From Chiloscyllium plagiosum (taxonomy: Eukaryota): 64,000 nucleotides of DNA. The notes beneath the pieces were generated by a model that saw nothing but the letters and a program-made list of their open reading frames with translations, had not been told where the DNA came from and searched no databases. Shown here piece by piece: positions 29,050 to 57,949 of the stretch (within the stretch, counting starts at the first letter, position 1; each line of letters begins with the position of its first letter). The stretch spans positions 29,364,822 through 29,428,821 of the forward strand of contig NC_057719.1 of NCBI RefSeq assembly GCF_004010195.1. Reading direction: 5' to 3'. A program made the translations under genes and the position numbers.

Positions 29050-29260
29050 GCTGAAAATGTGTTGCTGGAAAAGCGCAGTAGGTCAGGCAGCATCCAAGGA
29101 ACAGGAGAATCGACGTTTCGGGCATCAGCCGTTCTTCAGAAGAAGGGCTGATGCCCGAAACGTCGATTCTCCTGTTCCTTGGATGCTGTCTGACCTGCTG
29201 CACTTTTCCAGCAACACATTTTCAGCTCTGATCTACAGCAGCTGCAGCCCTCACTTTCTC
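29050..29260. mobile_element. Family-A palindromic PLE-terminus element, 15-bp target duplication
   Basis: Near-perfect palindrome. CTAGTATATACAACA at 29035-29049 and 29261-29275. Confidence 0.92.
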
Positions 29261-29646
29261 CTAGTATATACAACATAATATTAACTGGGTTACTTGCATA
29301 GAAGATGATGTAATTTAAGACTGCAGGGTAACAATATGCTTTACTTGGTGGCCCTTTGGTTTAACCAATGGATTAAAGATTAAAAATGAAAGATCAAGTT
29401 AGTTCTTCTATAATGCAATGGTTGCATTCTTGTGCAACTCCGTGATATAGAAAAATCATGCTTTAGAAACAGCACTTAAAAGTGTTGGTGCTGTAACTGC
29501 ATTACAGCCAACACACATTTTAAAGGTTCTCGCTGTAGAAACAGCATCCCCAATTTGTCAATTGTGTTACAGCAAATTCGCATCGATGAAACACACGTTA
29601 TAACAGAATGACCTATACAGTAAAATGGGAAGGACTTCAGATATAC

Positions 29647-30483
29647 CTTGTACAAGCACGTGTCAACAATCTGGTTACACACTTTCTCAAGATCATTGCT
29701 AACTTCTAGTCTGGATTTAACAAATTCACAGATCTCTTCATTCCCCATGACATCCCAAATACCATCACACGCTAGGATAATAAACTGATCATCCGCTGTT
29801 CTCTCAATTTCATAAACCTCAGGTTCTGGTGAGACAAGCTGCTCTGTTGGACCCTTCCCATGGACACACTTGTAATCAAAGTCTCCAAGAGCCCTTGAAA
29901 CAGCAAGGGAACCATTCACACGCTGAATCATGACTGAGCCACCAGCATTCTGGATCCGTTCTTTCTCCTGTGGGTTACTTGGTTTATGATCTTGCGTGAA
30001 GAAATGAACCTTGCCATTCCGACAAAGCAAACCTCGAGAGTCTCCACAGTTGATAAAGTAAATATGCTTGGGTGAAACCATGACACCCACTGCCGTTGAC
30101 CCACTTCTGTCTGAACCATGGCGCTTCTCAGAGATTGTTCGCATATGCTCATCTATCTGCAAGAAACCTGTTCGGATTCCACTTTTTACTTTCTCAACCG
30201 TAGGTTCAGTCATGCCATCAGTAACTTTGAAATCCTGGGTGTTGGTGATGTGATCTAACAAATGCTCACAGCAATATCTGGCAACTTGGGATCCAGCATG
30301 CCCATCATAGACTGCAAAGAAAGACCATGCTTCAAGTCCATGTGGTAGTCCAATGACAGCTGTATGTGCATCCTCCATCTCAATTCGCCAACCTTGCATG
30401 CTGCTCAGTCCATAATGTAGGTCATTTCCTGCACCACTGGCATTATGCTTTTCCATCTTTGGCTTATCCAGAAACGCTCCCAT
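29647..30483 (-). CDS. PPM1A: PPM1A first coding exon (exon 2): PP2C/PPM Mg2+/Mn2+-dependent phosphatase catalytic domain, aa 1-279
   Basis: Translation [14 protein letters not shown]...[12 protein letters not shown]...YDGHAG...NCGDSR...DHKP...LAVSRALGD...ACDGIWDV...VDTCLYK. Acceptor tttttcag is followed by 21 nt of UTR (exon starts 30504). Donor AAG|gtatat at 29646. Confidence 0.98.
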
Positions 30484-31004
30484 TTTCAGCCAATATGCTC
30501 AGCACTGAAAAAGTAAACAGAATTTTTTTTTTGAATGAATGTACTTACAATAGCAGAAACGTGAGCATAATCTCTCTTATAGTTGACCAGCAGCTAGTTA
30601 AAAATGGATCTCAGAAGAAATTCTTTTCAGCAAAGAAAATAAATAGATTCCCAAACAAGGTTAAAGCAAGACACACATTTGAAAGGCAGGCTCATCTTCA
30701 ATTTATCAATTAATACAGCTTATACAAATATTTGTACAGAAAAGTGATTCATTCAGACAACTGATTAGATATTAATTTGCCAGTTAATCTGCATAACCAT
30801 ATAAATCTGATGTAAAGACAATAGTCAAAATACAGTACAAACAGTGTGATGCATGCTTTCTTTATTCACAAGCATCAGTGGTGACAAAATTTAAATAACA
30901 TTTAACCTGAACTGTTCCAAAGGAACATCCCTTGAATGTTATATTTTGAAAAATCTGATATACGCTTACAGCAACTGCTTGTTTTATTTTTAAAAGCATC
31001 AAGG

Positions 31005-32185
31005 TTACCTCAGATTACAATGGGATCTTGATCAGATGAGCAAATGGGCCTAGGACTGGCAGATGGAGTTTAGTTTAGATAAATGTGAGGTGCTGCATTT
31101 TGGAAAGGCAAATTATGGCAGGACTTATATACTTAATGGTAAGGTTCTGAGGAGTGCTGCTGAACAAAGAGACCTTGCAGTGCAGGTTCCTAACTCTTTG
31201 AAAGTGGAGTAGCTGGTACATAGAACGGTGAAGGCAGTGTTTGGTATGCTTGCTTTTATTGGTCAGTGATTAAGTAGAAGAGTTGGGAAGTCCTGTTGTG
31301 GCTGCACAGGACATTGGTAAGGCCACTTTTGGAATACTTTGGCGCAATTACAGTCTCCTTGCTATAGGAAAGATGTTGTGAAACTTGCAAGGGTTCAGAA
31401 AAGATTTACAAGCAGGTTGCCAGGGTTGGAGGATTTCAGCTATAGGGAGAGACTGAATAGGCTGGGGCTGTTTTCTGTGGAGCGTTGGAGGCATAAAAGG
31501 ATGAGAGGTGACCTTATAGAGGTTTATAAAATAATGAGCGGTATGGATAGGGTAAATTGACAAGGTATTTTCCCTGGCGGTGGGGGAGGGGGAGAGCAGG
31601 AGAGTCCAAAATGAGATGGCACAGATTTAAAGATGAGAGGGGAAAGATTTAAAAGGGACTTAAGGGGCAACTTTTTCACACAGAGGGTGGTACATGTATG
31701 GAATGAGCTGCCAGAGGAAGTGGAGGAGGCTGGTACAATTACAGCATTTAAAAAGCATCTGGATGGGTATATGAATAAGACAATAGACAATAGGTGCAGG
31801 AGTAGGCCATTCTCCCCTTCGAGCCTGCACCACCATTCAATATGGAGAAAGTGAGGTCTGCAGATGCTGGAGATCAGAGCTGAAAATGTGTTGCTGGAGA
31901 AGCGCAGCAGGTCAGGCAGCATCCAGGGAACAGGAGAATCGACGAGGAAGGGCTTATGCCCGAAACATCGATTCTCCTGTTCCCTGGATGCTGCCTGACC
32001 TGCTGCGCTTCTCCAGCAACACATTTTCAGCACCATTCAATATGATCATGGCTGCCCAGAGTTTAGAGAGATATAGGCCAAATACTGGCAAATGGGACTA
32101 GGTTAGGTTAAGTTAGGATATCTGTTCAGCACAGACAAGTTAGACTGAAGGGTCCGTTTCTTTGCTGTGCATCTCTATGACTCTA
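31005..32185 (+). mobile_element. 5'-truncated CR1 (HER1-like) LINE with nested insertions
   Basis: ORF remnants YRKDVVKLARVQKRFT..LPGLEDFSYRERLNRLGLFS..RGDLIEVYKIM and RGNFFTQRVVHVWNELPEEV. 3' tail ctctatgactctat. Confidence 0.92.
31845..32030. mobile_element. Family-A palindromic PLE-terminus element, 14-bp target duplication
   Basis: CACCATTCAATATG at 31831-31844 and 32031-32044; inverted arms with a deleted centre. Confidence 0.92.
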
Positions 32186-32559
32186 TCATCCACTGAAGTG
32201 AGCAAAAAGCATTCTACACAGGATGTGGTACAAAATAACTTGATTGTTAAAGGTCAATATAACTTTTCTCAAGCATCTTTAAAAAGCTGTTCTCTGCTGG
32301 GTTTTTTTTAACCCTTTTCCTTACTAGTAACTGTTGAAATATATCTTCACTGGACAAATGCAAAGACTTGGGAGTTATTTTTGGATCTGCATTTCTACGG
32401 TCATTTCTTAAACATGTGCATTCACTGCTCCATACAAATGTGGGTGGATTTGCAGTATTTATTTAATTTGGATTCAGAAATGCCTTGGACTTATCCATAC
32501 TCATTGTAAGAAAAGAACTGCTGAAAAAATAAATTTTTGACTACTCAATACAATAAAAA

Positions 32560-32762
32560 GGTAGAGTCACCTTGGTCCTAATGGACCAGTAGGGCTGCTC
32601 TCTCAAAGAGAGATAAGTGGTGATGGTTTAACCTCAAAGTCACCATGACTCAGGCAACGGGAGGGTTTGAGAAGCAAAGGCGCTCATGGAAATCTCAGTC
32701 AGTGTTAGCAATATTCTATATTGTAAACAGGCGATCCAGTCAACTGAACTAACCAACCTCCC
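32560..32762 (-). mobile_element. tRNA-derived SINE, second family (also 38180-38335 on +)
   Basis: The two copies are reverse-homologous (ggtgaccctca.gttaaacaccacca versus tggtgatggtttaacctcaaagtcacca). B-box-like GGGTTCAATTGC in the 38.2 kb copy. Confidence 0.55.
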
Positions 32763-33166
32763 CCTGCCTCACTCTTGATCCTCCCCATGGTAATAACCAT
32801 TGGCACTTTACACAGGCAATAGAACTATGCAATTTATTGCACAATAAGTGTTATCTTGATCAGATAGTCCTTTAACAAGACAGTTTTGGTAATCTTACAC
32901 AAAAACAGAAAATGCAATAGGTCTGACAGCATCTGTGGAGAGAAAAACATTAAGTGACCTTTGTCAGAATGGTCATTTTCAGAATGTTTTTTGCTCAACA
33001 GATGATGGCAGAGCTATTAAGTTTAACAGCACTTTCTATCTTTGTTTCAGACCTTCAACATTCACAGTTCTTTGAGTTATTTCGTTAATCTTAGCTTTAC
33101 TTGCATGGAATAAATGATTCATAGGAAGTTGGAACTTACTGCCATGCCGGGAACTGATGAAGAGAA

Positions 33167-33196
<30 letters not shown>
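33167..33196 (+). repeat. G30 homopolymer
   Basis: 30 consecutive G. Confidence 0.95.
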
Positions 33197-33197
<1 letters not shown>

Positions 33198-34359
33198 AGA
33201 AATAGGAAAGGGACAACCATCTCCAAAAAAGCATACTCTCTTAACCGATATACACAGACAGATTATCTAATATCACTGTAATGTTCCAAATAAGAAGCTA
33301 ATCTGAAAGTTTTAAAACAATGAATTTCAGCAATCTGGTCCTGATATTACTTGTACCAAGCACTGCCTGGGAAACTAGAAGGTCAACACTGCATTAATTT
33401 AAGGTGAAGTAGAGGAAATCTATTTGTATTTTTAAAAGCTCACCCTAATTTAAACAAACATTTGTTAAGGAATTTTAGGATTAGGAATACTTCAAAGCAT
33501 TTAAGATTAGTCACAAAGTTTATGTCTTGGCACTGGCTGTCATAGATTCTAAACTACAATCTAAATAGCTCTTAGCCAGGTCACATGGTATGAAAGCTTG
33601 TGGACTCGAGATTACTAGTCCAAAGACATTACCACCATCCCACCACTGCCCCAGTTTATTTTTAGAATATGACGACTCAGCCAGAAAGGAGAACTGCAAA
33701 GAGATAATTAGTACGCAAGTACAGGAAGGAGAGGGTTTGATCAACAAATGCACAAATGTTTAATTTGCATTTTTTTTATCATCTTGCATATATAGGCTTT
33801 GTTTAGAATATCAGGGTATCCAAAAGCACTTAGTCAACTAATTATTTTTGATAAGTTAGTGTTGTAATGTCAGAGAAAATAGCCAATTTATACACAGAAG
33901 GCCTCACATATAGCAAAAAAGTGATTAACCAACTAATTTGTTTTTAGCAATGTTGATTAAGGAATAAATATTGGCCAGGATGCCAGAAGAGCTATCCTAT
34001 ACTTCAAATATGGCCATGAGATTTTAATGCTCATTGACAATACAAACAGAAACCTCAGAGCACAGTATTTCCTCAGTATTACATTTAATTATCAGGATAG
34101 ATTATGCATTCATGTCTCTAAAGTAGAATTTGAACCCGATTACCTTTGAATCAATTGATGAATAGTACCAGTACCAGGCTCTACTCATCCATGGAATTTG
34201 ACTAGGTAATTTCCAAAGTAGTTCAGAACAGTAAACATAAGTTAACTAAAACCTAAATTACCCAGTACCAACAGTAACATACTGTCTTTTCAGACATAAT
34301 ATATACATTTGAAATATAGATGTTAATATTGTTCCTCTTCAAAAACAATATCATACTTG

Positions 34360-35140
34360 GTAATAAATAATCACAGAAATTGCTGGAAACTCTGTAGGTC
34401 CAGCAGCATCTGTAGCGAGAAAACATATTTCACATCCTGTGAACCTCCTTAAGAATGAGAAACAATTCCAAAAAAAGGTATTTATGCTGAGGAACAAATG
34501 GGCATTGAGCAGACAGGTGGAGAGGGAGTCCAGAATGACAGAAAAAGCAGTAGGCAGACAAAGAGATTGTTGATAGCCAACCAGAGAAGCAGAAGCCAGA
34601 TAGATGATAATGGGGACAATGAATAGTTGAAAATGAATTGGCTGTACTAAAAGCGTCCCATCTCATGATAGAACGTTGGGTAGTGGGAAAGGTTAACAAA
34701 CAAGGAAGGGGGTCATCACGCACTAAAAATCGTTAAACCTGATGTTGAGTCCTGAGGGCTCAAGCAGCAGATGAGGTGTTATTCCTCCAGCTTGCATTGA
34801 GCTTCACTGGACTACTGTAATAAGTTTGAGACAGAAATGCTGTAACGAGAAAACAGTTGTGTCCAGAAGTGGCAAGGAGTTCAGGGTCATTTTTACAGAC
34901 ACATCATTGCTGTTCTGAAAAGCAATCATCCAGACTGTATTTCGTCTCCCTTATGTAGAAAAACCATTGTGAATAGCAAATAAAGTAGACTAAATTAAAT
35001 GAAACGCAGGTAAATTGCTACTTCAACTGAAAGATGTGTCTGTGGCGTTAGTGGGAGGTGGCAAAAAACAAGTATTGCTCCTTCTGCGATTGCATAGTGA
35101 AGTGCCTTGGGGGTGTGGTGAGGTGAGGTGTTGGGAGCAA
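34360..35140 (-). mobile_element. Degraded Penelope-like element 3' part
   Basis: Homologous to 1545-2600 and 4925-5700. Confidence 0.7.
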
Positions 35141-35979
35141 TTAACGTGGTCTCCTCTACATTAGGGAGACAAAACACAGCTCGGATGAGTGTTTTACAGA
35201 ACATCTACGTTCTGTCATAAAAGCGATCCCAAGCTTCTTCCCCCCCTTCACTGAGATTAAATTCAGGACAATCTTTGATCACAATGACTCACTGCTCCAT
35301 TAATTGAAACAAGTACATTTCAAAGCCAGAATAGAAAGTTAAATAATTGACAAAATGAAAATATGAAAAAAGGCAAAAAAAAGGAAATGATCAATTAACA
35401 TCTTTGCAATAAGCATAGAGAATTGAAATCTGTCCATCCAGCACGTATAATGATGCTGAGGAAAACAAAAATGTACATTATACTTATCCCCATTTTTATA
35501 TTTTCTGACCCCTTTCAGATTTTTTCCAACAATGAACTACGACGTAAGGACTATTTTAAATTCTTTAGCAGCTGAAAATGGTAACAATGTATGAATGCAT
35601 CTTCCCAACATCTAAAGATATTGTTATATCACTAACTTTTATCACCATTTTTAAACGAACTTAAAATAATCTTCAGTAGCTTTAAAAAAAATCCAACAAT
35701 GACATTCATAATCATACACAACTAGAATTTTGTTTACCCAGTAAATATTAAAACATTTAAAGAAGGTCATCCTACAAATGGTAGGATAATAAATATGCGA
35801 TTGCCAGGAGAGTTCAAGGGGCAAAGCATTTTCGCTCAGGAAAAAAACGCAGTTACATAACACTAAACACACACCCAGGAAACACCTCCTCTTTCCTAAT
35901 CCAATAATTATCAAAGATCAATGCATAGGCACAAACCATCTTTAAAAACAAAAACATTGTGAATAAAGAATAAAGTTAG

Positions 35980-36400: not shown

Positions 36401-36419
36401 AAAACTGGTCCTGAATTTT

Positions 36420-38075
36420 TCCTTTAATTCATCTAATTTTCTTCACGTCAGAGGTATGGCCATGGGTCCCACAAGGGCCCTAATTATGCATTTCCTTCTT
36501 GGGGTATGTGGAACATTCTTTGTCCAATCCTAGTCTAGTCTTAACCTACAACTCTTTCTTCATATGTCAACGACATCATTGGTGTTGCTTCCCTCTCTCA
36601 TTTGGAACTGGAAAACTGTAAAATTTCTACCTTGTTCTCACCTTGCCGGATCTCCTCCCTTCCTTGACTGGCCACCAATATTCTCTACAAACGCACTGAC
36701 TCCCACAGTTACCTGGCTATTCATCATCAAACCCTGCTTCCTGTAAAGACTATGTTTCTAGTTCCTTTATCTCTGACTCATGTTCCAATGATGCTAACTT
36801 TGACGAGGGGCCTCCAAAATATTCACCTTATTCCTCAACAGAGGATTCCTCACCATCGTGGTTGGCAGGGCCCTCAGCCATGTCTGACCCTTCTCTTGCA
36901 CTTTGGCCCTCACACTCTGTCTTGCCTCCCACACAGCGATAGAGCCCCCTTTGTCCTCACCTACCATCCCAGCAGCATCCATATCCATTGGATCATTAAC
37001 CACCATTTTCGCCAACTACAGTGGATGCCATCTCCAGAATCACATTTAGCTGCTGTCCTTTGTCAGCTTTCCGCAGACATTGTTCCACCGGTAACACCTT
37101 GGTCTACTCGTCCTCCACTCCCAACACCTCACTACAGTCCCATGGCACCTTCCCTTGCAATTGCAGAAGATGTAACACCTGTCTGTTTACTTCCTGACTC
37201 CTCACTATCCAAGACCCCAGACACACCTAGCATGTGAAGCAGCAATTTACCTGCACTTGACTCAATCTAGTCTTCTATATCTGCTGCTCACATTGTGTTC
37301 TCCCTTACATTGGGGAGATGAAGTGCAGACTAGGTGACTACTTTGCATAACACCTGAATTCTGTTTGCAAAAATGAACCTGAGTTTCCTGTTGCATGCCA
37401 CTATAACATACCACCATGCTCCCTGGCCAACATCTCTGTCTCGGCTTGCTGCAGTGGTCCAACGAAGTTCAGCACTAGCAGGAAGAACAGCACTTCATTT
37501 TCCTTTTGGGAATCCTGAAGCATTCTGGTCTCAATATCAAGTTCAACAATTTTAGGGCTTGAGCATCTTCTCCCATGTCCTTGCCCTTACCTGAACATGT
37601 ACACAGCCAGGCCTTATCATCACGTGGGCTACCAGCACAAACAACACATTACCAACCATGAATGGTCCCCATTAGCAGCAGTAGGTTCTTCCAGGCTGAC
37701 CTTTAACCATTCTTTTATCTGCTTAATTGTTTTTCTCTTTCTCTGTCTGGACTCCACATTTTTGAGGAAAAAGTGAGGACTGTAGATGCTGGAGATCAGA
37801 GCTGAAAATGTGTTGCTGGAAAAGCGCAGCAGGTCAGGCAGCATCCAAGGAGCAGGAGAATCGACGTTTCGGGCAGAAGCCCTTCTTCAGGAATTCCACA
37901 TTTACCTATCGTTGACTCCTCCCACCTCCCCACACTTCATCTTTATCACATAAACCAACCTTTTCCTAGCTAAAATCAGTTCTGAAGCAGGGTCACTGTA
38001 CCAGAAATGTAAACTCTGCTTTCTCTCTATAAATGCTGCCAGACCTGCAAGAGATTTTCCAGAAATTTCTGTTTT
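36420..38075 (+). mobile_element. Degraded Penelope-like retroelement (RT, GIY-YIG remnant, terminus) abutting the PPM1A promoter
   Basis: ggtatggccatgggtcccacaagggccctaattatgca = G.AMG...GPNYA (PLE RT motif). ORF remnant DRAPFVLTYHPSSIHIHWIINHHFRQLQ. Decayed terminal hammerhead-like agttctgaagcagggtcactgtaccagaaatgtaaact at about 37978-38015. Confidence 0.8.
37762..37894 (-). mobile_element. Single family-A PLE arm with an intact hammerhead core, 9-bp target duplication
   Basis: TCCACATTT at 37753-37761 and 37895-37903. Minus strand reads CTGAAGA-A-GGGC-TTCT-GCCC-GAAA-CGTC at 37890-37863. Confidence 0.85.
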
Positions 38076-39050
38076 TGTCTCTGCTGAGCACCTAGTGACC
38101 TGAGTATAACTATGGCACAAGGATTAAGTTCCTGGATGGTAGTTCACAGATATTTGCAGGAGTGGAGTTTTTATTGTTATTATAGTTCATTTGGCTGAAC
38201 AGTGGTGTGTGATGCAGACTAATGCCAATTGCATGGGTTCAATTGCCAGACTAGCTGAGGTTACCATGAAGGACTCTCTTTCTGAACTTTTCCCTTTACC
38301 TGTGGTGTGGTGACCCTCATGTTAAACACCACCAGTGCATTTACACTGCATTTTGCCCCCATCTCAAAGATTTTATTATTTTTCTGCAATTTTACATCAC
38401 TTAGCAATTTTAGAAAACATAATCAAAAACTATATTTAAAAGTTAAGATTGCATTAGTTGATTACATCCTACATTGAGGTATCTTGTGAGGACCATTCAA
38501 GACTAATGCAGTGCGGAAATACGAGAATAAGAAGGAAGATTGTCAACCTGAAATGTTAACCCTGAACTGAATCTTGCGCTGCAGGACGTGGTGAGCTTGA
38601 CTAAACAAGCATAGTTGGGATAGGATACGGGTAACAACATTTCAATATATAAAATTCAAGGTTAAGAGGATAGTATAGATACAGAGAGCTGGGTATAATC
38701 TGAAGTAATTAATTCGTGCAAATATATGGAATGAATAGGAAAAGTTAGATGGATTTTCAGTAAATTGTGCTTAGCTACCTTTAGGAGATAAGAAATTTTT
38801 TAAACATATCCTCAAGATTAAATGAGTTCAGTGAACAGGATTCATGAAAAATGATTTCCATGCTTCTATAATTGCCCTATTTAAGTTGACAATATTGGTT
38901 TGAGATTTGCTGTCGCTCAAACTGAAATTTAGATTCTACCATGACAACCACCCCCCAACCTGGAGAATCATTAAGTATGGGACTGCTTATTAATCCTACA
39001 TCATTACAAAGTACTAGATCTAAAATAGCCTGATCCTGGTTATTGGTCTG

Positions 39051-40317: not shown

Positions 40318-40519
40318 TCTGCAACATACTTTTGTAACAAATAATCCCCGATACACTCTAGAAATTCTTCATGCTTCATATTACCCATACCCATGTCCAG
40401 TCGATATGCTGCTTAAAATCACCCATGACAGTTGTAATACTCTTCTTATACCACTCAATTATTTCTCGATTAAAGTTTGACCTAGAGAGAAGCAATTCTT
40501 TGAGGGCCTGAATAAAATT

Positions 40520-42365: not shown

Positions 42366-42910
42366 TCAAATTGCAGGCAAGATAATGATGTTGTTTTTCC
42401 TTTAGTTTGCAAGATTTTAATTTGAAGTAATTGGAAAAGTTCACATTTGAATTATTAATTAACTTAATGAAGTATACCCAGTTAAGAAAAGTATCAGAAA
42501 AATATCGTAGGTGATTTCTGTCTCAAGACCTTAAACTGTTTCAGGTGAGACTTTTGTTCTCAAAGATCTTATTCTCTTTCATTCTGTCATAACACTTACT
42601 AATGAAGAAAAATAAATTTTACTCACCAAAGTCATGTCCTACTTTAAATTAAATGTTGCAACTGCCACTCAGTTGGTTACCAAATGGTTGAAGTGGAGGT
42701 GACAGTCTTGATTCAAGTATAAAAATGATCTGTTCCAATATATCTGATTGTGCTGTTGACAATTGCATTTTAATTTAACAAGAAATTAAGTAATTAGTTC
42801 CTTATGTCTGGTTACTATTGTAGGATTATTTATTGTCCCTGACTTTTCAAATCACAAATTTCGCTTTTAAGTCTTTGAAGAAAGGCTACTTGACTAATAT
42901 CTTTAAAGAG

Positions 42911-43097
42911 TGGCACTGGAAAAGCACAGCTGGTCAGGCAGCATCCGAGGAGGAGGAAAATCAACATTTTAGGCATAAGTCCTTCATCAGGAATGACAAT
43001 CCTGATGAAGGGCTTATGCCCGAAATGTTGATTCTCTACTTTTCCAGTGCCACACTTTTCAACTCTGATCTCCAGCATCTGCAGTCCTCACTTTCTC
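42911..43097. mobile_element. Older family-A palindromic element, 17-bp target duplication with 2 mismatches
   Basis: CTAATATCTTTAAAGAG (42894-42910) versus CTAATACCTGTAAAGAG (43098-43114). Core CTGATGAAGGGCTTATGCCCGAAATGTT at 43002-43029. Confidence 0.85.
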
Positions 43098-45409
43098 CTA
43101 ATACCTGTAAAGAGGAAAATCTAACATAGACAACTTTTTATAATTGATGAAGAAAGTGTTTCAAGAGCAATTGCATAAAAACAGAACTTAATTATGACCA
43201 TCAGTTATGAACATTTTTTTTTCTTCCCTACTTAGTTGCTTTAATGCAAAATTACCGCAAGTGCTATTTCCTGTTATTAAATTTTTGTTTACTTTTTTAG
43301 TAAACTTGCTTGGCATATAAAGTGTACATTATATTTCAGAGTAAAAGTTTCTTTACTATATCTCAAAGATAAGGAGGATTCTTTATGTGCATCCAGTAAA
43401 ATCTGTGGCTGAAGTAATCTACAAAACATGATTCATTATCTTAGATGATCTAGATATCATGGTGTGTAATAATCACTTGACTACTCAGAGGCAAAAAAAA
43501 CGAGAGATTTCCTGGAGTCCTGGTAAACATTTATCTTCTAGCCAATCCATGTAAAATAATTTAATTGGTTTGACACTGACAGTGAACTAAGACTCATTTT
43601 ATGTTTTGAATGACCAGAAAATTTAAACAGTAAATGTACAAGTGAATTAAAGTAGAAAATAACATATTTGAGTTTTAAATCAAACTAGCTGTATGCTTAA
43701 TAGGGAATACATTTCTCATAACTTTGAAGCTCAAACAGTTTATTTGGCCATTCACTGTTTGTGAATCCTTGCTGTGCACAAATTTCACTACATTTCATCA
43801 GGGACTACATTTCAGAGGTACTACAGTATATTAGTTGTCAAAGGCATTATTTTAAATGCAAGATATTTTCTTTCTTAATTTTCCTATATCCTTTCATTAA
43901 CTACTTAATTTCTACCTCTACAACATGAGTCAGCTTTGCTCCTAGCTCAAACTTGCCACCATTGAAATCCTCAAGTACGCCTGTTATCTTTAGAACCAAT
44001 TATTCCAAAGATTCTCTTTTTGTATCCCGTCTCCTATCTGCTGTGAATTCTAGCCTGGCTGAAAAGCAACCATCTCTAACTCATCCTACATTTGGTCCCA
44101 TACACCATTCCATTTGTCCCTACTGACTTACATGAGCTCCTTATCTCCCAAAATGAAAAGTTTCCATGTTAAAATATCTTTACGGCATTGAAAGCTGTAA
44201 GTTGAACTGAATAACAAAAAATTATTTCTGTTGCAGATTTCTTACTGTATGTGTAAAGTTTACTGTATGTGTAAACTTGCAACAAAAACTCCAAATTTTA
44301 ATCCAATCTGAGAATGGAACTTTACTGCTCTATTGCCTTTGAGAGTTATTATCTATCTTCATATTATTAAAGATACATTGATTTATGAAAATAAAAACTA
44401 CATTTCTTGTGCTGAATAAAAAGACAAAGAGGGATATGTCACTGTGTTCTTTTATAAAATTTCCTTCTTGGGATTTGAGCATTATTGCCAAGGCCAACCT
44501 ATCCCTAATAAAACTTACATGTTAGTATTATATATTATATTATTACTGATTTATTTTATTATGTTTAGTTTACAGTATATAAAGATAAACTATTTCATCT
44601 AACGAATGAATACAGGACAAGTCATAATGTTACATATAGGAGTGAAATCAGGCAGTGATATCAACATCAAGAAGTTCAGTATAATGGTAAGCAGCTGGAT
44701 TTGATCAGCCATCATCTACTTGAATGGTGCCAAAGGCTCAAGACACTGAATAATTTACTTCCATACCTCCAAGGCAGAGACATGGATGTTACAGAGTCTC
44801 CAAGTGTGCACAACTAGTGATGAGAGCCAGTGGCAACAAAAGTCATCTTAAACTACTTGTTTAAAATGAAGCAGATAAGAGCACTACCGTGTTCTGTATA
44901 CTAGACCTTAGTTAATTCCTATGTGGAATACGGTGTCCATTCTCTCACATGCTTGAAGATGCTGGAAAAGATTCTTAGGAATTCACTAATAACTAACTTG
45001 AAAATCCTAAGCTATCACAATACGTTCAGGGTCTTAGTTTGTTTTATTCTAGAAGAATGTTCATCTGGATGGGTTATTTGAATTAGATAAGTCAGGTAGA
45101 AATAAAGAGTGCGTGCATACAAATTACGTAAATATAGCTTTACATCAGATGTCAGGAGATTCTTCTTTTCCCAGAGGGTTATTCGCCTTTTGGAAAATGC
45201 TGCTGGCATTAGCAGGTGCTACTGGTTTATAATAAATGCTCATAAGGGAACTGGACATGTTTCTGGAAGAAGCCGATGAAGCTGTATTCAGAAGGTAGGA
45301 TGTTGGGTTATTTTTATCTTCTGAAAATAGCTTTTGATTGCCTTGGGGATAGAAGAAGAATATTCAAAGGCTATTTTCCTTGAAATAAAAGCAAAATACA
45401 GGAAGTGAA

Positions 45410-47667: not shown

Positions 47668-49852
47668 TTTTTTTTTGTTCTGTAAGCAAAGTTGTTTGTG
47701 ATCAAATAATAATGAAAACTGGTTACTACTATACTTCATTGTATTAATATAAATATGTTTCGATTATATAAAACAAAAACCCTGTGTTTTAGAAATTTCT
47801 CTTTGTTAATAAATGCTTGTTACTAATGAGATCTGTCAAGAGAAATTCAGTATGAGTATATCTTATTTGGAGCTGTTTTTCCACTGTTAGCAATTTTTAA
47901 AATCATATCTCACTTTAGTGTCTGCATTAAAGTAAGGTTTATTTTCAAGACTTGTTAAATCATGGCCATTTCTAGCAGTTTGGAATGATATAAAATCCCA
48001 TATTTCAAAGTAATTAATTTTATCTGAAGCACATTTGATATGTTTAAAGAAGCACCTAAGACAAAGCTTGTCCTTCAATTTTCTCCCCTTTGCTGACTCA
48101 TGTTGAAAAACCAGTTCTGCAGACACAAGTCACTCACTTTTCCTTTACTTTTGTTGCCAATTGAAAGTTTAAAATGAGAGTTTCTGCCAATTATTCAATC
48201 ACGTATGTCTGAAATGAATCCAGCCCTGCATTACACTATGCCTCTTTATCCTACTCATTTGACTTTAAATGTTTTGCTTATTTTTATGTATACTTAACCA
48301 TGCATTAGCTATTCACACTTCTTTTCGGACTGAAAAGGCCACAGTTATCACTTGTTTTTCCTTATAACTCAAACCTTTTACACTAGAAGTCAGCCTCTTA
48401 GTTGCATTGCCTCTATAATGCTTGACTATCTCTTTTGTTTCTGGACATGTAATTCCAGTTGTAATAAAAACAGAAAATGGTGGAGAAACTCAACAGGTCT
48501 GTGGAGAGAAAAACAGAGTTAATGTTTTAAATCTGAAACTATTCAGTTGTAATCTGGCCATAGTACAGCTTAACCATAACATTCTCTGCTGTTAAATGTT
48601 ACTGTTTAGTTATTTCAATAAGCATCCTATTGACATAGTCCTAATTGCTGCTCTTCATCAATTGGACTTATTTTGTGTTGAATCTAATGCTTAAAGTCCT
48701 CTGGGCTTGATGGGATGCATCCTACAATATTAAAGAAAGTAGCCACAGAGATAGTTGATGCATCGGTAGTAAACTTCCTGGAATTGTTATATTCTGGAAA
48801 AGTCCGAGAGGATTAGAAAACTACCAATGTAACACCTTTTGTTTCAGAAATAAAGAAGGAGATGGAAAACACAGGTAACATTAGGCCAGTTAGTTAACGT
48901 CAGTTATTGGGATAATGTTAAGGATATTATAAACATAAAAACATAGAAAATCGATACAGGAGTAGGCCATCTTAGTATCCTGTTCCCGCTTTTTCACCAT
49001 ATGCTTTGATCCCTTTAGCCGCAAGAGCAACATCGTCTCTTCAATATATCTTAATGAACTGGCCCCAACACAGAACTGACATGTGAGTTATTCTGAAAGC
49101 AGCTTTGATGATACGATGTTTTGGCACTGCCCACTTGTATGGAAGAAGGATGGAAGAGTGTGGTGCTGGAAGAGCAGAGCAGGTCAGGTAGCATGCAAGG
49201 AGCAGTAGAGTCAACATCTCGGGCATAAAACATAACAGCACAGTACAGGCCCTTTGGCCCATGATGTTGTGCCAAGCATTTATCTTAATCTAAGATCAAC
49301 CTAACCGACACACACTTCAATTTACTGCCGTCCATGTGCTTGTCCAGCAGTCACTTAAATGTCCCTAATGTCTCTGACTCTATTACCACTACAGCAGTGT
49401 ATTCCACGCACCTACCACTCTCTGTGTAAAGAACCTACCTCTGACATCTCCCTTGTACTTTCCTCCAATCACCTTAAAATTATGACCCCTCGTGACAGCC
49501 ATTTCTGCTCTGGGGAAAAGTCTCTCGCTATCTCCTCTATGTATGCATCTTATTACCTTGTACACCTCTATCAAGTCACCTCCCTTCGTTTCTCCAGTGT
49601 GAAAAGCCCTAGTTCACTCAACCTCTGTTCATAAGACAAGCCCACCAATCCAGGCAGCATCCTGGTAAATCTCCTCAGCACTCTCGCTAAAGCATCTACA
49701 TCCTTCGTATAATGAGGCAACTAGAACTGGATGCAATATTCCAAATGTGGTCTAACCAGGGATTTATAGAGCTGCAGCAAAAGCTCGTGGCTCTTAAGCT
49801 CAATCCCCCTGTTAATGAAAGCCAAAACACTATATGACTTCTTAACAGCCCT

Positions 49853-50281
49853 GAGAAAGTGAGGACTACAGATGCTGGAGATCAGAGCTGAAAAATGTGT
49901 TGCTGGAAAAGCGCAGCAGCTCAGGCAGCATCCAAGGAGCAGGAGAATCGACGTTTTGGGCAAAAGCCTTTCTTCCTGAAGAAGGGCTTATGCCCGAAAC
50001 GTCGATTCTCCTGCTCCTTGGATGCTGCCTGACCTGCTGCACTTTTCCAGCAACACATTTTTCAGCTCTGATCTCCAGCATCTGCAGTCCTCACTTTCTC
50101 AGGGCTGTTAAGAAGTCATATAATGCTGGAAATCAGAGCTGAAAAATGTGTTGCTGGAAAAGCGCAGCAGGTCAGGCAGCATCCAAGGAGCAGGAAGAAG
50201 GGCTTATGCCCGAAACGTCGATTCTCCTGCTCCTTCGATGCTGCCTGACCTGCTGCGCTTTTCCAGCAACACATTTTTCAG
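49853..50281. mobile_element. Tandem pair of family-A palindromes (49853-50100 and 50123-50281)
   Basis: Two inverted-repeat units separated by an inverted copy of flanking CR1 DNA. Intact hammerhead core at 49976-50003. Confidence 0.92.
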
Positions 50282-50872
50282 TTCTTAACAACCCTATCAA
50301 CTTGGGTGGCAACTTTGAGGGATCTATGTACATAGACCCAAGATCCCACTGTTCCTCATCACTGCCAAGAATCCTGTCTTTAACCCTGTATTCAGCATTC
50401 AAATTCGACCTTCCAAAAATGAATCACTTTGCGTTTATCCAGGTTGTACTCCATCTGCCACTTCTCAGTCCACCTCTGCATCCTGTCAATGTCTTGTTGT
50501 CGCCTGTAACAGACCTTGACACTATCTACAGCACCACTGACCTTTGTGTCATCGGCAAAATTACTAACGCACCCTTACACTTCTTCATTCAAGTCATTTT
50601 TAAAAACTACAAAGAGCAAAGGCCCAAGAACAGATCCCTGCGGGACATCACTGGTCAACTACCGCCAGGTGGAATATTTTCCATCCACTATCACTTGCTG
50701 CCTTCTTTTGGCTAGTTAATTCTGTATCCAGACAGCCAAATTTTCCTGTATCCCATACCTCCTAACTTTCCGAATGAGCCTACCATGGGGAATCTTATCA
50801 AATGCCTTACTGAAATCCATATACTTCACATCCACTGCTAGACCTTCGTCAACTTATCTTATCACATCCTCA

Positions 50873-51840
50873 CAGGCATAAAGTTCACCAAGGAGGAAGA
50901 AACCGACAACAAACTCGCATTCCTGGACGTCACAATCGAAAGAACGGACAACAGAGAACTACAAACCTGCATATACAGAAAACCGACAAACACTGACCAA
51001 ATACTTAACTACACCAGCAACCATCTCAACCCACACAAACGAAGTTGTATCAGAACACTATTCCAATGAGCACCTCACACTGCAGCACAGACGAACTTCG
51101 GAAAACAGAGGAGAACCACCTATACAACATATTCAAGAAGAACGAATACTCAAAACATACAGTCCGCAGATTCCTCAAGAACAAACCAGGACAAGCAAAC
51201 CAAACAGCCAGAAACCCTAACCACCTTACCATACATCAAAGAAGTTTCAGAAATGACAGCCAGACTAATAAGACCCCTCGGAATCCTAGTAGCACACAAA
51301 CCCACCAACACTCTCAAACAAAAACTAACAAACTTAAAAGACCCAGTACAACCCATGGACAAAACCAATGTCGTCTACAAAATTCCATGCAAGGACTGCC
51401 ACAAACACTACGTAGGACAAATAGGAAGAAGGTTAGCCACCAGGATACACGAACACCAGCGAGCCACAAAAAGACATGACCCTCTCTCCCTCGTAGCCCT
51501 ACACACGGAGGAAAAAAACCATTTTGACTGGGACAACACATCTATCCTGGGACAGGCTAAGCAAAGACATGCCAGAGAATTCCTAGAGGCCTGGCACACC
51601 AACCACAACACCACAAGCAAACACATAGATCTAGATGCTATCTATCAACACCTCAGAAAACGAACAGGAAATGACATTACCACAAACCCCAGGAACCCCA
51701 TCCAGGACAAACATATAAATAGAAAGCAGGAGACAACAGCTTCGCTTCACTTGGAGGTCGCCACTGATGATGTTATCTAGCCAGGTAATGAAACGTCTGG
51801 ATATCAAACCTACAGCTCAGCAAGCAAATCTACACCCTAA
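50873..51840 (+). mobile_element. 5'-truncated Penelope-like retroelement: RT thumb, GIY-YIG endonuclease and 3' hammerhead
   Basis: IKFTKEEETDNKLAFLDV...IYRKPTNTDQILNYTSNH, then VVYKIPCKDCHKHYVGQIGRRLATRIHEH...REFLEAWH. ATCCTCA is duplicated at 50866-50872 and 51841-51847. Confidence 0.95.
51761..51800 (+). ncRNA. Minimal type I hammerhead ribozyme motif at the PLE 3' end
   Basis: CCA-CTGATGA-T-GTTATCT-AGCC-AGGTAAT-GAAA-CGTC-TGG: stem I CCA/TGG, 7-bp stem II with G-U pairs, palindromic ACGT stem III, GUC triplet. Confidence 0.8.
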
Positions 51841-53029
51841 ATCCTCAAAGAACTCAATCAGGCTTGTGAGGCATGACCTGCCTCTCACAAAACCATGCTT
51901 ACTATCTTTAATCAAACTATATTTTCCCAAATAGTCATGAATCCTATCTCTCAGAATCCTTTTCTGTACCTTGCTTACCACAGACATAAAACTGACTGGT
52001 CTGTAATTCCCAGGGATTTCCCTATTCCCTTTCTTGAACAGAGGGACAATATTCGCCTCCCTCCACTCTTTTGATACTGCTGCCGTGTAGAGTGAGGGTG
52101 CAAAGATCATTGTCAGAGGCGCAGCAATCTCATTCCTTGTTTCCCATAGTAACCTTAGATATATCTGGTCCGACCCTGGGGACTTTTATGTCATGATGCT
52201 TCCCAGGATTTCCAGCACATCCACTTCCTCAATATCTGTTCAAGCCTATTAACCTGGTCCATGGTGTTCTCACTATCAACAAGGTCCCTCTCTCTCTATT
52301 GAATACTGAAGCAAAAAACTCATTTAGGGTGTCCCTTACCTCTTCAGACTCCATGCACAAGTTCTCTCCATTGTCCCTGCTTGGCCCTACTCTCTCTGTG
52401 ATCATTCTCTTATTCCTCACATAAGTGTAGAATGGTTTTGAGTTTTCCCTCATCCTTCCTGCCAAGGCTTTCTCATGACCCCTCCTACCTCTCCTCAGTC
52501 CATTTTTGAGTTCTTTCCTATCTACCCTGTAATCCTCTAAAGCTAGTCAGATCCTTGCTTCCTCAACCTTAAGTAAGCCTCCTTCTTCCTCTTGACGAGA
52601 AGCTCCTCTTCTCTTGTTATTCCAGGCCTCCTTTACCTTACATCCTTGCCTGTTTCAGTGAGACAGTTATCCAACACTCACAGTAAGTGCTCCTTAAATA
52701 GCCTCCACATTTGTGTTGTGCATTCCCCGTAAAACAATTGTTCCCAGTTTATACTCCACAGCTCCTGTTTAATAGCAGTGTAATTTCCTCTCCTTCAATT
52801 AAATACGTTCACATACTATCTGTTCCTATCTCTCTCCATGGCCATGGTAAAGGCGAGACTGTCACTGAAATGCTCTTCAACTGAGAGGTCTGTACATTCT
52901 CAAGTCACGTTTTAAGTCAGATTCTCAAAATAACTTCAGGGTTTCTAACAAAAAGGGAGTTCTTGGATTTACATATTAAGGAACTGAAACTAGCAAAACA
53001 ATTCTAAAAGACGAAAAACCTGAAAAACA

Positions 53030-53196
53030 ATCTAAGTTTGTTTAATATGTTTCAGCCGCGTGACATTGTAACCTTTGCGATAAATTCTGTCTTATGGTCC
53101 CGCTCCACAACCACCTGATGAAGAAGCAGCTTTTCGAAAGCTAGTGCTTCCAAATAAACCTGTTGGACTCTAACCTGGTGTCGTGTGATTTTTAAC
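53030..53196 (+). mobile_element. Family-B PLE terminus with hammerhead motif at 53112-53146
   Basis: CAC-CTGATGA-A-GAAG-CAGCT-TTTC-GAAA-GCTA-GTG, followed by the family-B end cctggtgtcgtgtgatttttaac. Confidence 0.8.
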
Positions 53197-53199
53197 GAT

Positions 53200-53930
53200 A
53201 TGGAATGTGAAAGTAACGCCACCGTGTTTGTGGTGCGATTGGCAAGATCACGACGAGAGAAATTATGTTTTCGCCGTAGCGAATGTTTGGCATTTGGAAT
53301 GCTGATTATATGCCGGACGGTGTGACGGAGACAGAAAGCGCTTCAGGGGGTTGGTACAGGGTTTGCACGTTCCCCTCCCCGGCAGAGATTAGACCCTGCA
53401 GGATGGGTCGAACGGGCACGTGCTGTCATCATCGCAGCCTCGAGCTTCCCGCAAGGTTTGAATTTCGCGGGCTGGAACCGGTGGATCAGGTCCCGGATGT
53501 AATGTTGATCGAACTGAAGGTGGGTCATTCCTGAGGCTCAGATATTAAAAATTGTTTACTCTCAGGTAGACAAAGACCGACAGCCTGAGTTTCGGAATTT
53601 CACGACTGAGAAAAATGCAAAGGCGACTTTCTTACTGAGACGAAAGCTTCATAAAAATTAGATAACAACTCGGTCGATAAAATTAGTTTGATTAGCTTCC
53701 AATCTGCCTATGATATTGGTGACCTTACCGCATTGGATTCTTAAACTTTCGTGCGCTTGCTCTAAACCCCACCTACTTTCAACACCCTCCTGACAAGCTA
53801 AACGTTTGGATAGGTATTTTAACATCTTGTTTTCTGCCTTGCTGTCAGATTTTGTTCGTTGACGTTGCCGTGAAGCGCCGAGGGACCTTCTGATAAGTTG
53901 AATGTATGATCTCAGCGTAAGTTGTTCTTT
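53200..53930 (+). promoter_or_regulatory. DHRS7: CpG-rich DHRS7 promoter region with probable non-coding first exon ending at 53916
   Basis: CpG-dense unique sequence with several CCAAT/ATTGG boxes (about 53238, 53699, 53715, 53732), a CACGTG near 53418, and a donor CAGC|gtaagt at 53917. Confidence 0.6.
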
Positions 53931-54344
53931 ATTTGAAATTTCTAGCGTTGTCGTACTTCAGGTTTTTTTTCTGTTGAATTGGCACATTCGTATAGAAAAC
54001 GATTGTACAAATTCATTACACGGTTTACTGCATTTTAAAAGCGCCAATTTGGAAACGATTGGATAAAGTTAGTAAACCACGTAACTCAATATTAACATTG
54101 GAAAACTTGATATTCAATTTAAGAATGTTGTCGCAAGCGTAATTATAATTCACAAATAGCAATCCGAACAGAGCAAAATATGTATAATACATAATATGTT
54201 TTGACTTCTGGCTTAAACTTAATTTGCTGAGGCGTGTTTATGCTTTATAGGTCACTAGTGAAGAAATGGGAATTAAGTTTACATGTTACGTTTTGATTAG
54301 TTCAATTCACATGGCTTTTCTTTATTTTATCAAACACTAGGACA

Positions 54345-54468
54345 ATGGATCTCTTATCATTACTGTATTACTGTCTAGTGATTTACGTGATCGTGCAGTT
54401 TATTCGGTTCTTGAGAGCTGATGGAGATTTGACATTGTTATGGTGTGAATGTTTTGGAAACAAGCCAG
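54345..54468 (+). CDS. DHRS7: DHRS7 coding exon 1: MDLLSLLYYCLVIYVIVQFIRFLRADGDLTLLWCECFGNKP (N-terminal membrane anchor)
   Basis: The RFLRADGDLTLLW motif is characteristic of DHRS7 (SDR34C1). Donor CCAG|gtacag. Confidence 0.93.
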
Positions 54469-54991
54469 GTACAGAGATTGTAATTTTACTTCTATGTTCA
54501 GTAATTAATCTACTTCAAATAATGTTGTAAAAATTAATCATTGCACCAATACAAACTCACTTCAGATTTCACTGAACTCTACCTTTATTGACAAATTAAA
54601 CTTTCTACCTTAAACTATGTCCCCAGCCTGAAAAAAAACTCTAAGTAACCATGCCCGTCATAATTCTGTAAACTTCTATCATTTCCCCATATTCTTTGAT
54701 GTTCAAGTGACATAATGAAAACATCCAAATCTAATACGTGGTTTATATTAATTGGCAAATTTCAGCTTAATAGCATTAGGAATTTTACAATGAACTCCGT
54801 TATCCTGGATTAAGTAGTTTGAAAATCCAGGAACGTTCCTGATACCATCTGGAGGGAAATCTAGTAACTGCAGTAACTCTCCATAGTTTCAACCCATATA
54901 AGGCACAATCTGTGAAGAAAAATCAAGTTCATCTGGCAATTCATAACATTAACATCAATTTTCATGTCATTCACAATCTTGGCATTTATAG

Positions 54992-55340
54992 CGTCATAGA
55001 GTCATAGAGATGTACAGCATGGAAACAGACCCTTCGGTCCAACCCATCCATGCCGACCAGATATCCCAGCCCAATGTAGTCCCACCTGCCAGCACCCAGC
55101 CCATATCCCTCCAAACCCTTCCTATTCATATACCAGGGAAAAAAGCCCCAGCCTGTTCAGCCTCTCCCTATAGCTCAAATCCTCCAACCCTGGCAACATC
55201 CTTGTAAATCTTTTCTGAACCCTTTCACAACATCTTTCAGATAGGAAGGAGACCAGAATTGCATGCAATATTCCAAAAGTGGCCTAACCAATGTCCTGTA
55301 CAGCTGCAACATGACCTCCCAACTCCTGTACTCAATACTT
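54992..55340 (-). mobile_element. CR1 (HER1-like) 3' end with internal deletion
   Basis: gtcatagagtcatagagatgtacagcatggaaacagacccttcggtccaac is the reverse of the 3' tail at 32140-32185. Confidence 0.88.
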
Positions 55341-56427
55341 ATATTGTCATTGTGCCCAACTCTCTGCTTTCAATCAAATAGTCCACTAACAATTACTGTC
55401 AAGTTTATTATGGCCCATGGCTAAGTTATCGGCTAAAGTTTGCCAGTCATCAAGCACCTATCTATTCTAATCCATTTTCTAGCACTTGGCCTGTAGCCTT
55501 GTATGCTATGATGTTTCACGTGCTTAACTAAATACCACTAAAATGCCTTGAGTGTTCCTACCACTCTTTTTAGGCAGAGTTTCCTGTATAAACCTGCAGC
55601 TCCTTACCTTAAGGCTATGTCTCCTGGTTGCTGACCCTTCTACTAAGGGTACATGAGGTTAACCATCCCCATGTTGTCCCTCATAGCTTTGTAAATCTCT
55701 CTTAAGTCTCCCTATATTATATTATATTCTATTCTTCATTCGCTATTCTAAGGAAAACCACCCCAGGCTATCTCGTCTCTTTCTTGGGCTGAATCTCTCC
55801 AGCTCAGTCTACATGTTGGTAAATAAAAATCGAAAGAACTGCAGATGCTGAAACTCTGAAACAAAGACAGAAATTGCTGGATAAGCTTCGCAAGACTGGC
55901 AGCAAATGTGGAGAGAAAGCAGAGTTAATATTTTGGATCTAGTGATCTTTTTTCAGAATAATTCATCCAGTGTATTCAAATCCCACAAGAGTCCCAAATC
56001 CTAGTTAATGCTATTATTGGCTAGTCACATTTCAAACTGAAATCTGGCTTGATAGATTTTTTAAAAATAAGTTAAGATGGTCTTTCACTGACACATAAGC
56101 CTGCAATAATGTAGATCTGGTTTTAACAAACAAACAGAAGTTTGTAAAAGAAAGGTTGACCAAGCTATTTACATATAACACAATTTGAAAGATTTTGAAT
56201 TACACAAAAATACAATCCCTTCTATCTCAGTATGGTAGAAAATCTCATTTTGTGCTAATGACATCTATAGCTTTTAACATGGCTGTTTCTTTTCAATTCC
56301 CAATTTAGCAATTTCTTTTCCTTGGTTAGTTCCACAACTAACTTACTTGACTTCAAGTAACCATTTCAGGATTTAACCAAAGACTTTTGATCTGGAACTT
56401 CCACACTGATTTTTTTTAACAGTGAAG

Positions 56428-56621
56428 TAAACCATTTCTTAACAATTCTAAACCATCTTCCTTTTTCAGGTTTGTGTGTGTTTCTTACATGTCTGTGCTG
56501 TTCCAGCAATAAAGTTTCAACTTTGATCTCCAGCATCTGCAGACCTCACTTTCTCCTAAACCATTTCTTAACAATTCTAAACCATCTTCCTTTTTCAGGT
56601 TTGTGTGTGTTTCTTACATGT
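56428..56621. repeat. 65-bp perfect direct duplication flanking a 64-bp family-A end fragment
   Basis: 56428-56492 is identical to 56557-56621. The insert ends gatctccagcatctgcagacctcactttctcc. Confidence 0.92.
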
Positions 56622-57408
56622 AACTTCCTTCAAGATATCTGTGAACTGAAAACAAAAACTTCCCCAGCAATGAGTTTACCCCTTAAGCCAAAAACAAATC
56701 CCTTACATTTCCAAACTGAAAACAAGCTCATGCACCTCTACTATTTTACTTTGTCTGCTTGTAAAACTGTCCCTATGCAAACAAATTACCATTATCACCC
56801 CTTTTACATTGGCTTTTAAATCTTCATAGCTCCCAAAGTACTGACAAGTTGTTCATTACACTACTCTTGTATATGCAGACCAAACCCCATGTGCCACTAG
56901 TTCAAAATCCAAATTCTCAAATAAATGATTGTTTATATTTATGTAAATGTGACACATTGCATCAAGGTAGTGGGATACTATTGCATGGAGGTGGATTTGG
57001 AAGGTGCTGCAGAAGGAGCCTTGGTGAGTTATTGCAGTGCATCTTGGAGATGGCACACGTTATTGCCATTATACATTGATGAAGGAAGTAAATGTAAATG
57101 GGTGGTGTGTCAATTGACCACACAGCTTTTTTTTCTGGATAGTGTTGAGCTTCTTGATTGGAGCTGCACTCCTCTAAGAAGCTCATCTTAGGTATGCAGA
57201 GATCTGTTGTGGTAGATGCCTACACAATTTTCCAATCTTGAGCATTTGTTTTACATCAACAAAAATGCAAGATCTAGGGGTCTTTATTTGAAATATTTCT
57301 GCTATCATTAAGACTCAACTTATTCATGAATGGAAATTAATAGTTTGTAAAGGTATTTTTGATAGTCAAGGAATAACATTTACAAGCTAGGTATTTAATA
57401 TTCAATAG

Positions 57409-57561
57409 AAGACAAACTCTACAAGAAAGTGGTATGGATAACGGGGGCCTCTTCTGGAATTGGAGAGGAGCTGGCATATCAACTAGCAAAATTAGGAGCT
57501 TTTTTGGTGCTATCTGCTAGGAGAGTTGCTGAACTGGAACGAGTTAAACAAAACTGCCTTG
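57409..57561 (+). CDS. DHRS7: DHRS7 coding exon 2 (153 nt): [51 protein letters not shown]
   Basis: Classical SDR Rossmann TGxxxGIG motif and SARR. Splice sites tag|AA and G|gtaagt. Confidence 0.96.
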
Positions 57562-57819
57562 GTAAGTAAAATATTTTTAATGATCGTATAGATTACTGGA
57601 AAAGTAAATTTAGTATGTAACTAAAGGAAATTAATTAGTTGTGCTGTTCACTATCCTTGGAGATTGAAACAGAGTTGAAGAGTTGTGAAATAATTTTAGC
57701 ACTATCAGCGTTTGTAACGGATGTAAGTAAAGTTTCTTCTTGTGAACTGCCTGAAATTATCTTTCTTTGCCTCAGTTGAAACGCTAGACTTTTTTTTTCA
57801 TTTTTCCTCTATTCATCAG

Positions 57820-57949
57820 TTCCTGATGAAGGGCTTATGCCCGACACGTCGACTCTCCTGCTCCTCAGATGCTGCCTGACCTGCTATGCTTTTCCAGCGC
57901 CATAGATTTCAATTCTGATCTCCAGCATCTGCAGTCCTCAGTTTCTCCT
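57820..57949 (+). mobile_element. Single family-A arm with a mutated hammerhead (GAAA to GACA)
   Basis: CTGATGAAGGGCTTATGCCCGACACGTC at 57823-57850. Confidence 0.85.

Follow-up and report, generated by a model that had tools for sequence, protein, structure and literature searches.

The stretch of Chiloscyllium plagiosum DNA described here (contig NC_057719.1, positions 29,364,822 to 29,428,821; 64,000 nucleotides, hereafter the window) contains several copies of a unit of about 130 bp, referred to as family A, which bears the motif of a minimal hammerhead ribozyme. They are interpreted as abbreviated copies of the terminal repeat (pseudo-long terminal repeat, pLTR), itself hammerhead-bearing, of a Penelope-like element (PLE). 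Likely, they arise when the reverse transcriptase (RT) begins within the front repeat and falls off the element RNA on reaching its 5′ end, a reading to which we assign a probability of about 0.62. Ribozyme cleavage does not set the ends of the copies.

5′ ends of the copies

Positions in the unit are counted from the C of CUGA (0), which places the predicted scissile bond at +27/+28. The sample was composed of 160 evenly spaced 10-kb stretches of large contigs (1.54 Mb without N, 0.04% of the 3.56-Gb genome), in which a BLAST search with five natural unit copies as queries gave 292 arms. The young arms, with at least 90% identity and a length of at least 30 nt, numbered 115, of which 10 were censored by gaps or edges and 105 were uncensored; the stop-rate test was performed on the 101 arms whose 3′ end lies at +80 or beyond. 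The density of about 56 young insertions per Mb extrapolates from this sample to roughly 2 × 10^5 in the genome, assembly gaps probably removing long copies from the counts.

The breakpoints showed a hot spot at the ribozyme's front edge, from which the scissile bond lies about 31 nt downstream. The 5′ ends of 54 of the 101 arms fall at -12 to +10, with the peak at -4/-3, and 25 of the 105 uncensored ends lie exactly at -4/-3, arm ends being defined by BLAST with an error of a few nt. The stop rate in this interval (54 ends in 1225 nt at risk, 0.044 per nt) is 14-fold the background (22 ends in 7117 nt, 0.0031 per nt), with P about 2e-42 for all arms, in which the paired arms of one fold-back are non-independent observations, and about 1e-12 for the solo copies alone. 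An earlier note, made from the sequence of the window, had stated that the insertions truncate or invert right at the ribozyme and had proposed a histogram of breakpoints relative to the core; this histogram is non-random, and the statement stands as regards a strong hot spot, which has to be placed at the front edge and not at the scissile bond. The cleavage-site interval (+25 to +30) holds one end, with 1.6 expected.

The 3′ ends of the unit cluster at two sites, about +85 to +92 and +123 to +126. The same 5′ peak was found for arms from both 3′ groups and for the solo copies alone, and it is therefore set by position, not by length. About 30% of the arms that reach +10 read through the hot spot. 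Among the loci where the unit leads into the open reading frame (ORF) of the element and which reach the core (five independent cases), three begin at 0 to +3 (L283, L289 and L293/L297) and two are partial tandems. A second, apparently unrelated PLE family, whose breakpoints were mapped with 15 parent-type references, also exhibits a pile-up at the front edge (44 of 75 arms at risk; 0.033 per nt versus 0.005-0.011), two groups of 3′ ends and background-level ends at the cleavage site. At -4, 154 loose ends were counted in the reads of run X21 (organism B), their flanks being mixed. A long stem is predicted to form between +44..+52 and +98..+109 (L224, L285), the first 3′ group lying in its loop and the second just past the stem, and this predicted stem may define the two RT starts.

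Neither a sharp 5′ stop before the hammerhead nor PLE hammerheads of sharks were found in the literature, closed journals and Repbase lying outside the search. The PLE element, the hammerhead, the inverted pLTR and the tail are already published; the 5′ hot spot is apparently new, and Fig. S2 of PMC11167929 may bear on its novelty (papers are cited here and below from their available text).

Fold-back insertions

Of the 36 fold-backs in the sample, 33 pair one tailed with one tail-less arm, two-tailed pairs being absent (0/36). The architectures are all different (36/36), and a direct repeat of 12-20 nt surrounds the whole fold-back in 30 of the 36, a count which includes end microhomology of 1-3 nt and was made without a shuffle control. 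Of the 16 pairs in which loop II could be scored, 14 have the same loop in both arms, with a chance value of 0.21. In 13 of the 33 pairs the tail-less arm exceeds the tailed one by 10 nt or more in the 5′ direction, so that each arm of these pairs has sequence absent from the other, and both must therefore have been copied from RNA. The fold-backs are made anew each time and are not copied as units. These data fit two internal RT starts with extension of both strands, as described in PMC11167929, better than the self-priming considered in PMC3846280.

Parent element

Since the unit forms the 3′ end of ORF-bearing copies and passes through a leader into the ORF start, it is assigned, on sequence evidence, to the pLTR of a Neptune-type PLE, the Neptune label being taken from a linker motif. 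A shared 3′ untranslated region and a GIY-YIG frame lie upstream of the unit in several of the 30 best-match loci, and walking further upstream led to RT-bearing frames of up to 684 amino acids with a CX4CxxC linker before GIY-YIG; in L224 and L222 the unit is the 3′ end of the element. The L045 frame matched RVT_1 (E 2.5e-7, above cutoff) and GIY-YIG (E 3e-4; 21.4 bits, slightly below the cutoff of 22.6), and the motifs DKG and YIDD are present in the RT frame of the element. The linker between RT and endonuclease (EN) reads CNRRRCNTC, in agreement with CX2-5CxxC, which marks Neptune PLEs, a similar motif being known from Nematis (PMC8557442).

In 8 of the 20 loci obtained from the 5′ part of the ORF (L279, L280, L281, L283, L285, L289, L290 and L293/L297, the last two being one), the unit passes directly at +125, via a short leader, into an ATG-led frame, and this region matches the N-terminus of the full-length relative P0007 (best E 6e-21). 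In L285 and L290 the unit continues upstream, which makes them classic partial tandems. The element thus displays the traits of EN-containing (EN+) PLEs, namely an ORF with RT and C-terminal GIY-YIG, a pLTR at both ends, partial tandems, and an inverted 5′ copy with tail and target-site duplication (TSD). The nearest database proteins of its ORF are from sharks, the best with 81% identity. The PLE origin suggested in the earlier note is borne out by the continuity of the unit with the RT/GIY-YIG ORF.

The ORF is variable in several respects. A long repetitive stretch rich in Thr, Pro and Ala separates the N-terminal domain from the RT in L263, L269, L234 and P0001, is absent from P0007, P0011 and P0018, and is reminiscent of the Asn-rich inserts of rotifer PLEs. 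Pieces internal to the ORF occur as tandem arrays, with 213-bp spacing and at least 13 units at G000:C1:136150183-136153037 and with 120-bp units in L225. In L034, L039, L050, L053 and L056 variable deletions separate the endonuclease frame from the pLTR; such deletions upstream of the pLTR are present in many long copies and are possibly template jumps.

Hammerhead motif

The minimal type I hammerhead is real as a motif, its self-cleavage being a prediction. A scan for core plus stem II gave 163 matches in the sample and the window taken together, compared with 5-14 in five shuffles, in accordance with the minimal hammerhead with palindromic ACGU recognised in the earlier note, and the strict cores (55 in 1.54 Mb) extrapolate to about 10^5 in the genome. 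Core boxes, helix II, an NUH triplet and a palindromic helix III stub are all present. Helix I, which was no search filter, covaries: 26 of 30 inner pairs hold across 10 groups, with a shuffled mean of 15 and 0 of 20,000 shuffles reaching this value, the groups being hand-labelled from 137 of the 163 matches (26 unassigned ones omitted), mutually related and in some cases composed of 1-3 copies. Helix I has 4 bp in one subfamily and contains a U-U mismatch in the commonest.

No compensatory pair was seen in stem II among the subfamilies of family A, in which the majority sequence of the stem is constant and the loop variable, stems varying only between families; the Rfam scan returned no hammerhead family, the only matches being sub-threshold microRNA (miRNA)-like hairpins. 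Inserted cores evolve like controls (29 of 1834 core sites changed versus 135 of 8626, odds ratio 1.01), and because core mutation is neutral after insertion, constraint acts on the source elements.

In predicted folds of parent copies helix I is weak (pair probability at most 0.11), and cofolding of two cores points weakly to a dimer-like helix, for the A2 subfamily only. The dimeric cleavage envisaged in the earlier note cannot be derived from the fold-backs, as their two cores lie on opposite strands and their transcripts are predicted to form one long duplex with the core locked inside. The minimal motifs described in the literature show no activity as monomers and little as dimers. Cleavage by the anole hammerhead requires protein, and hammerhead mutants still insert in vitro (PMC11167929).

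The second hammerhead-bearing family is represented in the window at 17375-17399 (-), 17599-17623 (+), 53115-53139 (+) and 59851-59874 (+). It has a 5-bp stem II, an AGCU palindrome and a triplet region of GUA/CUA type, and it also makes fold-backs.

Origin of the short copies

According to the proposed mechanism, the RT would initiate within the front pLTR, copy 90-130 nt and drop off the RNA 5′ end before the hammerhead, while priming in the rear pLTR would result in ordinary random truncation. The endonuclease would cut the two target strands in a staggered manner, with about 12-15 nt between the nicks. Each strand would prime a complementary DNA (cDNA) of its own, a different internal start being used for each, and joining of the two cDNA ends, often via microhomology, would give the fold-back; one priming event alone would leave a solo stub. 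The weakest step is the start of the element RNA, which should lie at -4, that is, at the A of the initiator-like TCATTC and the 5′ edge of helix I. TCATTC resembles the initiator consensus. A splice acceptor at -4 was considered and rejected, the sequence having no AG there. Two internal RT starts bounding the tail, with both strands cut and extended in vitro, are described in PMC11167929.

Several observations weigh against run-off from a fixed RNA start. The RNA 5′ end was sought in two read alignments and no common molecule start was found; run X21 and the contig sets reflect genomic copies carried along in host transcripts, mostly by read-through, and are therefore uninformative on start or cleavage. 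A cap-derived G is not enriched: of the 20 junctions that show a non-parent base, 7 have G before the ATTCC start, close to chance, and the TSD-anchored junctions gave too few cases for this check. The ends are spread over -12 to +10, the inverted remnant L293/L297 reaching -12, and the peak of the second family is broader (-9 to -3) and has no clean initiator match. In Drosophila virilis 46 nt separate the start site from the beginning of the intron (PMC2377424), whose end is at helix I (PMC4209133), and therefore the start there lies upstream of helix I. Moreover, the 49853 insertion, with its two tailed arms and inverted flank copy, looks self-copied, and the end counts involve BLAST-defined ends, non-independent paired arms and gaps probably hiding long copies. 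More tentative, and on the whole doubtful, is an extension of the scheme in which the 90-130 nt cDNA would behave like strong-stop DNA, either giving a stub or being transferred to the rear repeat to regenerate a partial tandem, the hammerhead acting mainly as a protein-bound 5′ structure and full -4..+125 stubs being themselves transcribed and recopied as minimal elements with a ribozyme.

The main rival to run-off is a boundary at helix I that is protected by protein or made by a nuclease, so that -4 would be a processed end, either because element protein on the folded hammerhead blocks 5′→3′ decay or because the endonuclease cuts the intermediate at the ATT present at -4. It would account for the facts that -4 is the exact 5′ edge of the family-A helix I, that the second family peaks beside its own helix I and that the cap G was not found; the dependence of the anole hammerhead on protein and the preference of the anole endonuclease for ATT near the ORF-pLTR junction (PMC11167929) point in the same direction. 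We nevertheless regard it as unlikely, since the ATT at +29 of the main subfamily shows no pile-up and the read-through of about 30% past the site suits two templates, the front and the rear repeat, at least equally. The idea that the breakpoints are set by hammerhead cleavage, or by stalling of the RT at its fold as the earlier note proposed, can hardly be maintained and is already largely refuted by the breakpoint histogram. The motif is conserved across families, its helix I covaries and the hot spot overlaps the core; however, ends at +25 to +30 do not exceed expectation in family A, nor do they rise above background in the second family, and an RT moving 3′→5′ would stall 3′ of the helices, whereas the ends pile up on the 5′ side, so that stalling is unsupported. 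The weakness of the parent helix I in predicted folds also speaks against this idea.

Self-priming, in which a single strand folds back and is copied, was proposed for an antisense template (PMC3846280), and the inverted copy of its own flank in the 49853 insertion and the near-symmetry of many junctions would agree with it. As the general origin of the fold-backs it is very improbable, in view of the sequence private to opposite ends of the two arms in 13 of 33 pairs and the lack of two-tailed pairs (0/36), and alone it leaves the solo hot spot unexplained. Little more probable is the proposal of the earlier note that the copies constitute a self-propagating class of non-coding ribozyme elements similar to miniature inverted-repeat transposable elements (MITEs). 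The abundance of young insertions, mostly short and with their own TSDs, would suit such a class, PLE-derived non-autonomous retrozymes have been proposed (10.64898/2026.07.22.740005), and a self-recopying solo -4..+125 stub would mimic the run-off product. On the other hand, the unit is continuous with the parent ORF both upstream and downstream, the 36 fold-back architectures differ without a fixed terminal inverted repeat or fixed termini, the main young haplotypes and the four commonest loop-II variants are common to short and long copies in the 0.04% of the genome sampled, and the matches listed include no tandem array of the unit. The alleles present in short copies only belong to older subfamilies, for which long copies exist but were missed by the references.

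Copies of the unit in the window

All seven copies of the unit cited in the earlier note, solo or as inverted pairs, were confirmed. Its statement that they carry their own target duplications holds for five of the six window insertions; for the 57820 insertion a TSD was looked for in the flanks and not found. The head-to-head pair of pLTR stubs at 29049..29262 consists of a tail-less arm (-) with its outer end at about +91 and a tailed arm (+) with its outer end at +125, the arms being alike in 85/89 positions and the TSD being 29035-29048 = 29261-29274 (14/14 nt). A second pair, 31845..32031, has a tailed arm (-) with the 5′ end at about +24 and a tail-less arm (+) with the 5′ end at +2, within the TSD 31831-31844 = 32031-32044 (14/14). 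The solo pLTR stub at 37765..37894 (-) starts at -4, is flanked by 37753-37761 = 37895-37903 (9/9) and is inserted in a remnant of an older PLE family; it carries the core at 37863..37890 (-), intact as a motif (CUGAAGA, bulged A, 4-bp stem II, GAAA, CGUC). The pair at 42911..43099 belongs to an older subfamily and has a short central spacer, an internal deletion in the right arm and the TSD 42894-42910 / 43098-43114 (15/17); its near-intact core variant at 43002..43029 (+), in which ACGU/GUC is replaced by AUGU and a GUU triplet, has a 4-bp helix I.

The insertion at 49853..50285 is a single compound one, in which two tailed arms are followed by an inverted copy, 22 nt long, of the left flank (50101-50122) and then by a second head-to-head pair; the arms plus flank are complementary in 141/148 positions, and the TSD is 49839-49852 / 50282-50295 (13/14). 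Its core at 49976..50003 (+) is intact, as is the one at 37863, both as claimed in the earlier note, and the fold-back junction cuts its helix I to 2 bp. The inverted copy of its own target flank (22-25 nt, within 49828-50285) suggests that the cDNA folded back, was self-copied into the flank and then returned to the RNA template; none of the 36 sampled pairs resembles this insertion. The solo stub at 57820..57949 (+) starts at -3 and has a dead core (GACA for GAAA, 57823). The other broken cores of the window have a stem II mismatch at 29116 or lack C3/U4 (arms at 29139, 31944 and 50194). Old fragments of the unit lie at 2353..2397 (-) and 49153..49228 (-), a 3′ fragment from the tail region at 56498..56557 (+) and a tail-less fragment without the core at 59468..59529 (+). 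A tail fragment of the unit is flanked by an exact 65-nt direct duplication at 56428-56621.

Decayed RT/EN remnants of older PLE families are found at 36464-38083, which hosts the 37765 stub, and at 1984-3087. A GIY-YIG-like frame at 51070-51797 (+), with a tblastn E of 8e-7 against the family-A ORF and no Pfam match, ends at a third type of hammerhead with a longer stem II (51764-51797). A large coding exon of a PP2C phosphatase lies at 29476-30498 (-) (Pfam PF00481, E 1.7e-83), between the 29049 and 31845 insertions, which are probably both in introns.

Significance and comparison with known systems

No obvious mechanism of pLTR regeneration is known according to PMC2377424, and the function of the hammerhead is unclear according to PMC8557442. 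About 10^5 fossil insertions represent a base-level record of the process, which speaks against a cleaved RNA template and favours two independent primings, and which predicts one exact RNA start. For annotation, the hairpins should be treated as PLE debris, neither as MITEs nor as miRNA genes.

The strong-stop DNA of long terminal repeat (LTR) elements is formed by run-off to the RNA 5′ end, and in L1 twin priming two cDNAs are made from two target strands. Here, unlike in these systems, the primer would be target DNA acting at internal sites of the RNA, and a single stretch is copied in both arms. The minimal hammerheads of metazoan PLEs (PMC4209133) resemble the present ones in the CUGANGA/GAAA core, the bulged base before helix II, G10.1-C11.1, the palindromic 15.2-16.2, the short helix I, and in being mostly single dispersed motifs with some opposite-strand pairs; here helix II is limited to 4 bp, helix I of the main subfamily contains a U-U mismatch, and the strict cores extrapolate to about 10^5, compared with up to about 9,000 obtained there with another descriptor. 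The available text of that paper names no sharks. The Poseidon element PAc of Anolis (PMC11167929) shares two internal RT starts, extension of both strands and the lack of cleavage-site ends, but it belongs to another clade and its ORF starts in stem II, whereas the ATG is here about 35 nt after the tail; its available text reports no 5′ hot spot. The non-LTR retrozymes (10.64898/2026.07.22.740005) are likewise non-coding, hammerhead-bearing and derived from a pLTR, and are defined as head-to-tail tandems, whereas the units described here are solo or head-to-head. Such a tandem was rejected as an explanation of the window copies, which are solo or head-to-head, no arrays having been seen among the sample matches listed. 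There is also a likeness in architecture with the insertions of EN+ PLEs (PMC3846280, PMC8557442), where an inverted 5′-truncated pLTR, a one-sided tail of 30-40 bp and a TSD are described: head-to-head arms, one-sided tail, TSD, partial tandems and a pLTR leading into the ORF start are common to both. The truncation is variable there, whereas the copies described here are mostly pLTR-only, number about 2 × 10^5 and share one fixed 5′ site.

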